From assembly GCF_011045215.1 (NCBI RefSeq), contig NZ_CP049201.1: a stretch of 64,000 nucleotides of DNA. One strand, written 5' to 3'. The stretch is from Escherichia coli (GTDB lineage: Bacteria > Pseudomonadota > Gammaproteobacteria > Enterobacterales > Enterobacteriaceae). Made by a program: the position numbers and the translations under genes. Of this stretch, positions 59,817 to 61,228 are shown in pieces; position 1 is the stretch's first letter, and the number at the start of each line of letters is the position of its first letter. Below the pieces are notes generated by a model. That model worked only from the letters and a program-made list of their open reading frames with translations, searched no databases and was not told the origin of the DNA.

Positions 59817-60179
59817 TTAACGACCTGCTGCGCGGAGTTTTCCGTCAGGTTCACCGGCAAGAGTCAGTAATTGTCCCTGGTCTTCCTGCAGAATAGTCAG
59901 GCGACCACCGCGATTGACATACATCGGCGTTTCGGTGGTGTCTTCTTCGGAAATTTTCCCGCGGTTAGTTGGGCGAACATATGAGAGTTTGTGTTTGATT
60001 TTCACACGGTTCTCATCAAACGGTTCGATTTCCAGATTGAGTGAGACCTTCCCTTTGGTTTTCGTGTTCATCACACCGGAAGCGACCTCACTGAGAACTG
60101 CGCCGATTTTGGTTTCAAATACGCCGCCGTCCAGCTCCCCGATAAATGCCTGCACATCAGTACTGCGTTCGCTAGCCAT
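59817..60179 (-). CDS. YfdP-like phage protein, 120 aa
   Basis: Start MASERSTDVQ with SD AGGAG 6 nt upstream (the ORF track extends further 5' into GC-rich sequence, which I reject as coding). Confidence 0.65.
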   Translation of the reverse strand: MASERSTDVQAFIGELDGGVFETKIGAVLSEVASGVMNTKTKGKVSLNLEIEPFDENRVKIKHKLSYVRPTNRGKISEEDTTETPMYVNRGGRLTILQEDQGQLLTLAGEPDGKLRAAGR

Positions 60180-60649
60180 TTTGCTGCTCCTCATCATATC
60201 GACCCTGCAAGGTCGGTTGGTTTCTCCACAAAACAGAGAAGAACACCTGCGGTGGCAGCCGCCCGGATGGATTGGGTTATGAGCCCGTCGTCCGGTGATG
60301 CTCTTCTCTGTTTTGCAAAAAAGGACGGTACCAGCCGGAAGCAAGGGTACAAACTGGTACCGCCAGGACTACACACAGCATAAAGTTGTGGTGCCGGGTG
60401 CCTCCCGGTGCCTGGCGAAGGTTGCACACCAGGCGGGTGGGTATCCACAGAAGGTCGACTGTCAGCCTCAACCTTAACCCGCGTGCGCTGAGCCGCATTC
60501 ACCACAACGCTAAGGATTCTCTCTGGTTGAAAATACTTAGCTGTTATGTGCCTGCTTTTAGCCACATCAGGCGAGGTGGACCTGGTTATTCCCCAACAAC
60601 AAGGATTCGGTTAATCTGGATATCCCCAACAACAATAAGAGTATTCAAT

Positions 60650-61165
60650 GTGATCGCTGAATTAACGGCAGCAATGACGGCTATTCGTGAAACAGCCCAG
60701 ATTGCAAAACTAATGAACGAGGCAAAAACTCAAGCTGAAGTAAATGCGGCTATTGGTGAGCTAAACTCAAAGCTTGCGTCTATTCAGCGCGAATGCGTGT
60801 CTCTCGTTGAACTGGTGGGCTCTTATCAAGAAATAAATGCTTCTCTCAAAGCTAAAATTGCAGAATTCGAAAACTTTGAGGCTCAGACGGAAGGCTATAT
60901 CCTTAACCAACTTGAGTCGGGTACTTTTGTATACTCGAAGGAGGTAATCGTGAACGGTGGCAGCATAACCATGCATCTTTGCCCAAAATGTTTTGGACAA
61001 AAGATAGTATCGATACTTCAACCATTCCCGGTTAGCGAAGATGAGCTTTTTCATAAAAGCAGGTGCCTCCACTGTGAAAATAAGTTTCTGATGAATAAAA
61101 ATCCGGATTACGTATCGCCTCCATCCATTGAGGAGTTGTCCAGAAAACTTAACGGCAATCTGTAG
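60650..61165 (+). CDS. Hypothetical moron protein: N-terminal coiled coil plus C-terminal CxxC...CxxC zinc-ribbon-like motif (about 165-172 aa)
   Basis: Protein-like composition starts near GTG 60650 or ATG 60674; HLCPKC...CLHCENKF; own terminator downstream; convergent with cI and antisense to the early-left operon. Confidence 0.55.
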   Translation: MIAELTAAMTAIRETAQIAKLMNEAKTQAEVNAAIGELNSKLASIQRECVSLVELVGSYQEINASLKAKIAEFENFEAQTEGYILNQLESGTFVYSKEVIVNGGSITMHLCPKCFGQKIVSILQPFPVSEDELFHKSRCLHCENKFLMNKNPDYVSPPSIEELSRKLNGNL

Positions 61166-61203
61166 ATTACTACTGTTGTGGATATCCAGATTGTTAAAGA
61201 GCT

Positions 61204-61228
61204 AAGCGTCCTGTAGGGCGCTTTTTTG
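61204..61228 (+). terminator. Rho-independent terminator of the moron gene
   Basis: AGCGTCCTGTAGGGCGCT hairpin (7-bp stem with one G-U pair) followed by TTTTTTGTT. Confidence 0.6.

Follow-up and report, generated by a model that had tools for sequence, protein, structure and literature searches.

Two tandem repeats before a prophage moron of Escherichia coli as the probable halves of a two-strand regulatory module of the P22/lambda sieB type

Which function can be attributed to two related sequences that stand in tandem directly before the start codon of a prophage gene? The question is raised by a 64,000-nucleotide stretch of Escherichia coli DNA (contig NZ_CP049201.1 of the assembly GCF_011045215.1, hereafter the window), in which an open reading frame (ORF) for a protein of 171 aa, the moron gene (60650-61165, plus strand), begins with a GTG at 60650 directly after the repeat units R1 (60582-60615, plus strand, CTGGTTATTCCCCAACAACAAGGATTCGGTTAAT) and R2 (60616-60649, plus strand, CTGGATATCCCCAACAACAATAAGAGTATTCAAT). 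A preliminary description, made from the sequence alone, had already seen the two tandem units of about 34 bp, which are indeed present with an offset of one base, and had proposed either that they act as C/A-rich enhancers of a translation independent of the Shine-Dalgarno (SD) sequence, or that they are a protein-binding site. Comparison with other phages points to a different answer, which we consider the probable one: the repeats would be the two halves of a two-strand regulatory module like that of the sieB gene of phages P22 and lambda, which combines the promoter and leader of the moron with a sas-like antisense RNA. Promoter, antisense RNA and a third, inverted copy of the repeat had all been missed in that first account.

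Both units share the exact 13-mer TCCCCAACAACAA, located at 60590-60602 in R1 and at 60623-60635 in R2, which gives a period of 33 nt. Their true likeness is limited to the first ~21 nt, CTGG(T/A)TA(T)TCCCCAACAACAA (20 matches out of 21, with one indel), and hardly any similarity is found between their 3' thirds. R2 includes a palindrome, GGATATCC. Within the window, TCCCCAACAACAA is the sole exact 13-mer recurring at a distance of 14-60 nt, a property that was also found in 4 of 100 block-shuffled windows and that, taken alone, is only marginally beyond chance. The repeats are judged to be real not because of these statistics, but because the two-unit arrangement, with a spacing of 32-35 nt, is conserved in 46 distinct (R1,R2) core pairs of other phages and prophages, with some further loci having R1 but not R2. 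The claim that no other direct repeats of this kind exist in the window holds as far as close exact 13-mers are concerned, and overlooks a diverged copy in inverted orientation (61167-61192, minus-strand sequence AATCTGGATATCCACAACAGTAGTAA), which lies directly after the stop codon, at the start of a conserved right-flank module, and is 85% complementary over 26 nt to 60613-60638. Likewise, the SD sequence is not wholly absent as first stated, since AAGAG at 60637-60641 contains a conserved GAG (60639-60641) that constitutes a weak SD 8 nt before a start codon whose position is kept, as GTG or ATG, among the homologues of the moron.

The relatives of this leader were found by a sensitive search with 60540-60652, which retrieved P22-like phages and the lambda segment 34394-34464, located just upstream of sieB (76% over 71 nt by blastn). 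The homology defines a module of ~120 bp (60536-60656, 121 nt), related to the sieB promoter/leader of lambda and P22 and anchored upstream by a conserved block (60550-60579, GCCTGCTTTTAGCCACATCAGGCGAGGTGG; 30-nt pattern GCCTGYYTTTNNNCCACNTCAGGCNNGGTGG) that is common to both phages. Three types of leader follow this block. Type A, the one of the window, has two units with the core TCCCCAACA(A/G)C placed 33 nt apart, and is known from 60 distinct examples; type B, found before sieB in lambda and P22, has two units with the core ACCCCTACAG at 34 nt; and type C has a single unit, in which TATNCT is followed by an inverted repeat around TCTCACACAA and then by the SD.

Homology, architecture, covariation with its strand bias and the diversity of cargo are shown by the sequences compared here, whereas P22 supplies the promoter, the start of the RNA, and both the existence of the antisense RNA and its sequence. 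In the curated record of this phage (BK000583), the sieB promoter is given as TGTACCCC...TAAACT, with the -10 hexamer TAAACT lying between two CCCCTACAG units and with the RNA start at the A immediately before the second of them, the sieB ATG being found 31 nt further on. According to this annotation, unit 1 provides the -35/spacer region and unit 2 the +1 together with the start of the 5' untranslated region (5'UTR), with the -10 in between. Distances are well kept in the window, with 21 nt from CCCC to the -10 in both phages, and 6 nt, versus 7 nt in P22, from the -10 to the second CCCC. At the position of the P22 hexamer, on the plus strand and at the junction of R1 and R2, we find the putative -10 TAATCT (60612-60617), with a candidate -35, TTCCCC (60589-60594), 17 bp upstream. 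Ranade and Poteete (J Bacteriol, 1993) are said to have determined the sieB start by RNase protection, and a two-base change in the -10 reportedly inactivated the promoter. TAATCT is invariant in 10 distinct type-A leaders collected with a search pattern lacking the hexamer, and it is also present in the window, in SfIV and in a cassette of an O157 prophage, with TAAACT/TAAAAT as its equivalents in type B and TATNCT in type C. Moreover, in the type-A loci L138, L167, L168, L181, L184 and L206 the homology stops right after TAATCTGGAT(A), where a different leader and gene come next, which fits an exchange of cargo at +1. By analogy with P22, transcription of the moron would start at about 60623 +/- 1, in the first bases of the R2 core, and the mRNA would begin with (U)CCCCAACAACAAUAAGAGUAUUCAAUGUG (start (U)CCCCAACAACAA) and have a C/A-rich 5'UTR of ~27 nt, of which R2 probably forms the first ~13 nt.

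A promoter in this place bears directly on the idea that both repeats lie in the 5'UTR, either as C/A-rich SD-independent enhancers or as targets of a G/U-rich small RNA (sRNA) such as GcvB. The cores are certainly C/A-rich, they precede a GTG with a weak SD (GAG), the stretch 60622-60655 is predicted to be fully unpaired in the mRNA leader, and an 8-nt match to the G/U-rich region of GcvB can be drawn (CAACAACA:UGUUGUUG). By homology to P22, however, R1 would be upstream of the transcription start and could not act as a translation element, and loci with R1 and no R2 do not agree with such a role either. The duplex with GcvB reaches -12.3 kcal/mol versus a shuffle mean of -16.7, so that 96.6% of the composition-matched shuffles are as good or better. 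In addition, homologues of the moron protein with 27-30% identity are also found behind type-B leaders with CCCCTACAG cores, which keep the CCCC and lack the CAA repeats; hence the CAA tract does not go with the gene, and CCCC is all that is conserved. For the two repeats together we regard this explanation as unlikely, although an enhancer-like role of R2, in a short unstructured leader with a weak SD and a GTG, is plausible.

The second half of the proposed module is found on the opposite strand. The sas RNA of P22, as defined by sRNA sequencing, is 127 nt long (PMC13397905, Table 2; a 2026 study), and its published sequence is the exact reverse complement of a P22 segment that begins 14 nt upstream of the block, includes both units together with the -10 and the SD, and ends at position +5 of sieB. 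As presented in works that cite the original article (Genes Dev 1993), sas inhibits the synthesis of SieB through base pairing with the mRNA of sieB. From 19 type-B (P22/lambda-type) antisense sequences alone, a covariance model was built that had a single match in the 64 kb of the window, which covers the model at full length on the minus strand at 60536-60656 (50.3 bits, E 7.9e-13). This segment would correspond to a sas-like antisense RNA, or to a part of the transcript of the leftward phage promoter (PL) that yields one, and it spans the start codon, the SD, R2, the -10, R1 and the block. The same model gave 101 matches across 99 sources, type-A and type-C loci included. No dedicated antisense promoter could be recognised by eye in the cargo, either here or in P22, and as the cargo varies between phages, read-through from PL is the more economical source of such an RNA.

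Covariation on the minus strand gives a more detailed view of this RNA. In the alignment of the model matches, termed A2, 89.7% of the cells are paired versus 80.2% in shuffles and G.U cells amount to 101 on the minus strand versus 39 if the plus strand is read (76 versus 20 in helix 2, that of R1'), both pairing and strand bias being inflated by the fact that A2 was fitted to the structure. Double changes occur in 14 of the 20 pairs, and the covariation score is 0.160, compared with 0.067 in shuffles (0/500) and with 0.017-0.043 in slid controls. One element is the R1' hairpin (60581-60604, minus strand), CCUUGUUGUU-GGGG-AAUAACCAGG, which is predicted both in the minimum free energy (MFE) fold and by RNAalifold, and whose GGGG tetraloop is complementary to the CCCC at the inferred 5' end of the mRNA. 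One of its pairs is G.U in 60/60 distinct type-A sequences and would be an A.C mismatch on the plus strand, its outer arms show compensatory variants (ATCCT/AGGAT, ATTCT/AGAAT, TCTGG/CCAGA and TTCCTG/CAGGAA), and an equivalent hairpin, UGUA-GGGG-UACA, exists in the sas of P22. The block, read on the minus strand, provides the 3' domain of the antisense RNA, with a helix GCCUG:CAGGC and a second pairing CCAC:GUGG; the two interleave in the topology of an H-type pseudoknot, which a covariance model cannot hold. Helix 3 of the model is 99.4% paired, and the block helix (GCCTG:CAGGC in DNA) has the rare compensatory variants GCCGGG:CCCGGC and GCCCGG:CCGGGC (L131, L136, L195).

The assignment of this structure to the minus strand is also supported by the position of the inverted repeats, which straddle the mapped start, so that their 5' arms are not part of the mRNA. 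For type-A leaders, the output of RNAalifold was limited to the inner R1' hairpin on the minus strand, with no convincing structure on the plus strand. Hairpins of the plus strand in a long 5'UTR were considered and rejected: they fold no better than shuffles (z +1.0), the R1 hairpin would contain A.C mismatches, and the P22 start lies inside the inverted repeat. In the single-unit leaders of type C, the promoter is a textbook extended -10 (for example L001 1931-1990 and L002 1870-1910), with a -35 TTNACC in the block, a 16-bp spacer and then TGGTATNCT, and here too the inverted repeat straddles the expected start site. Its arms covary, as judged from 26 distinct arm pairs comprising 351 Watson-Crick, 9 G.U and 6 A.C cells, and in some of these leaders a 5' arm CCTT pairs with the SD AAGG.

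Another reading takes the cores as tandem sites for a DNA-binding protein, operator- or iteron-like and three helical turns apart, that would repress or activate the moron promoter. A spacing of 33 bp with one site at about -34 and another at +1, the palindrome of R2, and cores that change in concert as if one factor read both, would all fit such sites. The flanks of the cores covary, however, in a base-pairing manner and with G.U pairs on the minus strand, which is not predicted for an operator and argues for an antisense RNA. Moreover, no candidate factor is known, the operators of the phage (TTGCGANATATGCAA) are unrelated to the cores, and the same cores exist in phages with different immunity regions. 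The protein-binding site of the preliminary description found no supporting evidence, and we hold it to be very improbable. Two other candidates were discarded. A type III toxin-antitoxin system, in which ToxI-like tandem repeats of ~36 nt precede a ToxN/AbiQ-family endoribonuclease gene and are transcribed with it, is not compatible with only two units, one of them in the promoter, and with a protein lacking any ToxN/AbiQ, PADLOC or Pfam match; and the NarL heptamer TACCCCT, visible in the lambda/P22 core, is absent from the variant of the window and probably due to chance.

Why the first unit should resemble the second is a separate issue, since only R2 would be transcribed into the mRNA. 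The cores of R1 and R2 change together, as seen in the pairs CAAC/CAAC, CAG/CAG, CAACCA/CAACCA and AGTCA/AGTCA, and in type B, where CCCCTACAG occurs twice. Over 16 nt of core, the identity between the units is 11.1/16 within a locus and 10.3 with permuted partners, a value as high being reached in 0/5000 permutations. A match of R1' to the 5' end of the mRNA would explain why the cores are identical and co-change. On the other hand, R1 could be functionally neutral and simply what remains of a leader (5'UTR, SD and start) that was duplicated in tandem; it would persist because the module travels as a linker for recombination at a mosaic boundary. In P22, the end of unit 1 does resemble a copy of the SD and start region (GAGAAATCGGATAAAC vs GAGAATCGCCGATGAAC; L239 3700-3765, window 60600-60655), and the two-unit form probably arose by such a duplication, the present -10 deriving from the duplicated start-codon region. 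It is also true that homology between phages breaks exactly at the edges of the module and that cargo is swapped right after the -10. A neutral relic would nevertheless be expected to drift, whereas no other part of the module is as conserved as R1 in phages of E. coli, Salmonella and Klebsiella, and R1 is nearly invariant in the 60 type-A leaders; its core has stayed the same as that of R2 through at least 3 core variants, and the arms of its hairpin show compensatory changes. We consider the present neutrality of R1 quite unlikely.

Altogether, in the two-strand module that we favour, the plus strand would offer R1 as -35/spacer, the -10 TAATCT, a start at ~60623, an unstructured leader, the GAG and the GTG, and its promoter would allow expression of the moron while the prophage is repressed, in the orientation opposite to that of the early-left operon. 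Upon induction or infection, leftward transcription from PL would copy the module into the sas-like antisense RNA. The R2' part of this RNA would be fully complementary to the leader and SD of the mRNA, whereas the R1' hairpin would display GGGG and contain the 13-nt seed, UUGUUGUUGGGGA, a second time, as a match to the 5' end of the mRNA, which is predicted to be single-stranded. The resulting duplex would shut off translation of the moron during lytic growth, and selection for this loop-to-5'-end recognition may be what keeps R1 equal to R2.

Several observations weigh against this scheme, besides the fitted alignment mentioned above. The inferred -35 TTCCCC is a poor one, and a scan of 60100-61600 with the sigma-70 consensus found no promoter. 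Both the start site and the antisense RNA of type A rest on homology to P22, whose cores differ (CCCCTACAG vs CCCCAACAAC in the window). The antisense segment of the window folds no better than shuffles (z +0.52) and the sas of P22 itself only modestly better (z -1.79), and the window does not preserve the R2' hairpin of the model, which would here include non-canonical pairs. Finally, as some loci keep R1 before a cargo leader without R2, R1 is not retained only as a second seed.

The module is not restricted to this gene. Its block pattern stands before unrelated genes in more than 120 viral contigs, and the module as such precedes at least 26 unrelated protein families, as counted with a crude ORF caller. 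Among complete E. coli genomes, 3042 out of 5426 (56%) hold some part of the 121-nt module, at least the conserved block, and 1312 hold the full two-unit form (at least 80% of its length), and it is never annotated in them. Two type-B loci (L018 3920-3966 and L111 1110-1156) keep the block, unit 1 and the -10, followed after the unit-2 start by a GC-rich hairpin (CCCCCTTACTTTGTCAGGGGG) and no gene, and are modules without cargo. A prophage 99.6% identical to that of the window is present in E. coli C7 (NZ_CP010240). The site occupied in the window behaves as a cassette site, as judged by comparison of related phages: SfV and SfII have the left flank in common up to 60579 and the right flank from 61234, with other genes and no repeats in between; SfIV shares the flank up to 60633, hence with both repeats, before a different gene; and a Rac-like prophage of O157 carries 60542-61202 in an unrelated context. 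Tentatively, then, and as something that may well prove otherwise, lambdoid prophages would share a portable cassette of ~120 bp for expression in lysogeny and silencing on induction, with both strands coded in the same bases and at least 26 unrelated genes plugged in at +1, and in its two-unit forms R1 would act as a second seed, exposed in a GGGG loop, that speeds the capture of a CCCC-initiated mRNA by the antisense RNA derived from PL.

Regarding the gene itself, the right end of the window corresponds to the early-left/immunity region of a lambdoid prophage similar to SfV, SfII, SfIV and ST64B. The minus strand carries genes similar to yfdR, yfdQ and yfdP as well as a cI-like repressor (61485-62177), and a cro-like gene is encoded on the plus strand. 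Two exact copies of the operator TTGCGA(G/A)ATATGCAA (61394-61408 and 61416-61430, minus strand), with relatives between cI and cro, mark the left operator (OL) and PL, which therefore lies just left of cI and reads leftward through the locus. The moron opposes this direction and has an intrinsic terminator of its own (61204-61229, plus strand, AAGCGTCCTGTAGGGCGCTT plus a T-run, conserved within the right flank of related loci), both features making 60650-61165 a classical moron. Its protein has a coiled-coil-like N-terminal half and a C-terminal CxxC...CxxC, and matches phrog_1244, a family of unknown function (E 9e-60), with no match to Pfam or PADLOC families. The frame remains open for 264 nt further upstream through both repeats, where the 33-nt period keeps the frame and encodes 'SPTT' twice; a program-made list accordingly gives an ORF of 259 aa (60386-61165), and in some annotated genomes the module is covered by a 'hypothetical protein'. 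Conservation of the start codon argues for a start at 60650 and for a spurious long ORF. An in-frame ATG at codon 9 (60674-60676), just outside the putative antisense RNA, is conserved in the cargo family (...AAM...) and recalls the sieB/esc arrangement of P22, which may mean nothing. There is also a short upstream ORF (GTG 60576 ... TAA 60612) without a usable SD. At the other end of the window, Tandem Repeats Finder detected a 318-bp unit in 3.1 copies with 72% matches (385-1375), which probably reflect domains repeated within the gene of a large surface protein and have no relation to the leader repeats.

Downstream of the moron, the conserved right-flank module (61167-61229) contains, on the minus strand, the terminator hairpin, the conserved GCTCTTTAACAATCTGGATATCC and a C/A-rich tract. 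The inverted third copy is embedded in GCTCTTTAACAATCTGGATATCC, with the SD and ATG of a minus-strand gene coming next in SfIV, L133, L166, L228 and L235, and among 76 type-A loci there are 44 with an inverted copy at 400-960 nt downstream, so that the cargo is bracketed by inverted TCTGGATATCC sequences. The bracket could serve as leader for the PL gene that comes first or as a target or decoy for the seeds of the antisense RNA, or it could be the trace of an inversion. The possibility that the 5'UTR pairs with the inverted copy of the 3'UTR was discarded, as such pairing appears neither in the MFE nor in the centroid structure of the full predicted mRNA; the copy is instead predicted to pair locally with the end of the ORF as a hairpin. 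As for PL, no N-like gene was found after the OL/PL operators, and a leader segment common to SfV, SfII and SfIV (61234-61300) lies before the terminator hairpin, which transcripts from PL have to get through. A put-like RNA is one idea for the means of read-through, the fold in this region (61234-61430, minus strand) being unexceptional (z -0.16). An Rfam scan found no curated family over the repeats and a sub-threshold match to STnc100 that adjoins them (60315-60538, minus strand; 40.3 bits with a gathering score of 47, E 1.3e-6). The 5' end of this STnc100-like segment (60538) abuts the 3' end of the sas-like one (60536), and the PL transcript may thus contain two structured RNAs in tandem. 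Canonical copies of STnc100 have been reported downstream of stx2 and near Pas sRNAs.

We read the element as an unannotated further example of the P22/lambda PsieB-sas promoter/antisense module, placed before an uncharacterised moron. What goes beyond the work of 1993 is its breadth, with many cargo families and more than half of the E. coli genomes, and the concerted evolution of its two units. Such a module explains how a gene set backwards in an early-left operon can be expressed in the lysogen, and suggests that it is switched off when its own phage goes lytic, which is of relevance for exclusion or abortive-infection genes that would otherwise harm that phage. It also marks a hot spot and could be used as a handle in searches for accessory or defence genes expressed in lysogeny, as a means to correct annotations such as the spurious ORF 60386-61165, and as a compact part for sense/antisense control.

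Among known systems, the closest is PsieB-sas of P22 and lambda (Ranade and Poteete 1993, J Bacteriol 175:4712 and Genes Dev 7:1498), with which the module of the window shares its place in the genome (opposite strand, between the early-left genes and PL/immunity), the upstream block, the two units with the putative -10 between them and CCCC at what would be about -34 and +1, and a minus strand that matches the covariance model over its full length. The differences lie in the core (CCCCAACAAC instead of CCCCTACAG) and the -10 (TAATCT instead of TAAACT), in the host phage, which is SfV/SfII/SfIV-like and has no N gene next to PL, and in the gene served, a phrog_1244 protein of 171 aa unrelated to SieB for which no second product of the esc type is known, unlike P22 sieB/esc; in other words, the module belongs to the family and the gene does not. 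In the RNA-OUT/RNA-IN pair of IS10, the antisense RNA is a stem-loop whose loop complements the very start of the target mRNA, the duplex extends over the ribosome-binding site, and the promoters overlap on opposite strands. The loop-to-5'-end scheme is similar in the absence of any sequence relation, but the module has two tandem recognition units, and its antisense RNA would probably come from a long PL transcript and not from a promoter of the pOUT type. GcvB, according to what Sharma et al. reportedly described in 2007, targets C/A-rich translational enhancer elements, which R2 resembles as a C/A-rich single-stranded tract before a weak ribosome-binding site; R1, on the contrary, is probably not in the mRNA, the complementarity is no better than that of shuffles, and CAA is not conserved with the gene. 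Lastly, the morons of lambdoid phages, said to have been defined by Juhala et al. in 2000 as units of promoter, gene and terminator, share with this locus an own promoter and an intrinsic terminator around a single gene, which is expressed from the prophage and faces the opposite way to the operon that it interrupts. Compared with ordinary morons, the promoter part is here shared and portable, would also encode an antisense silencer, and serves at least 26 unrelated genes.

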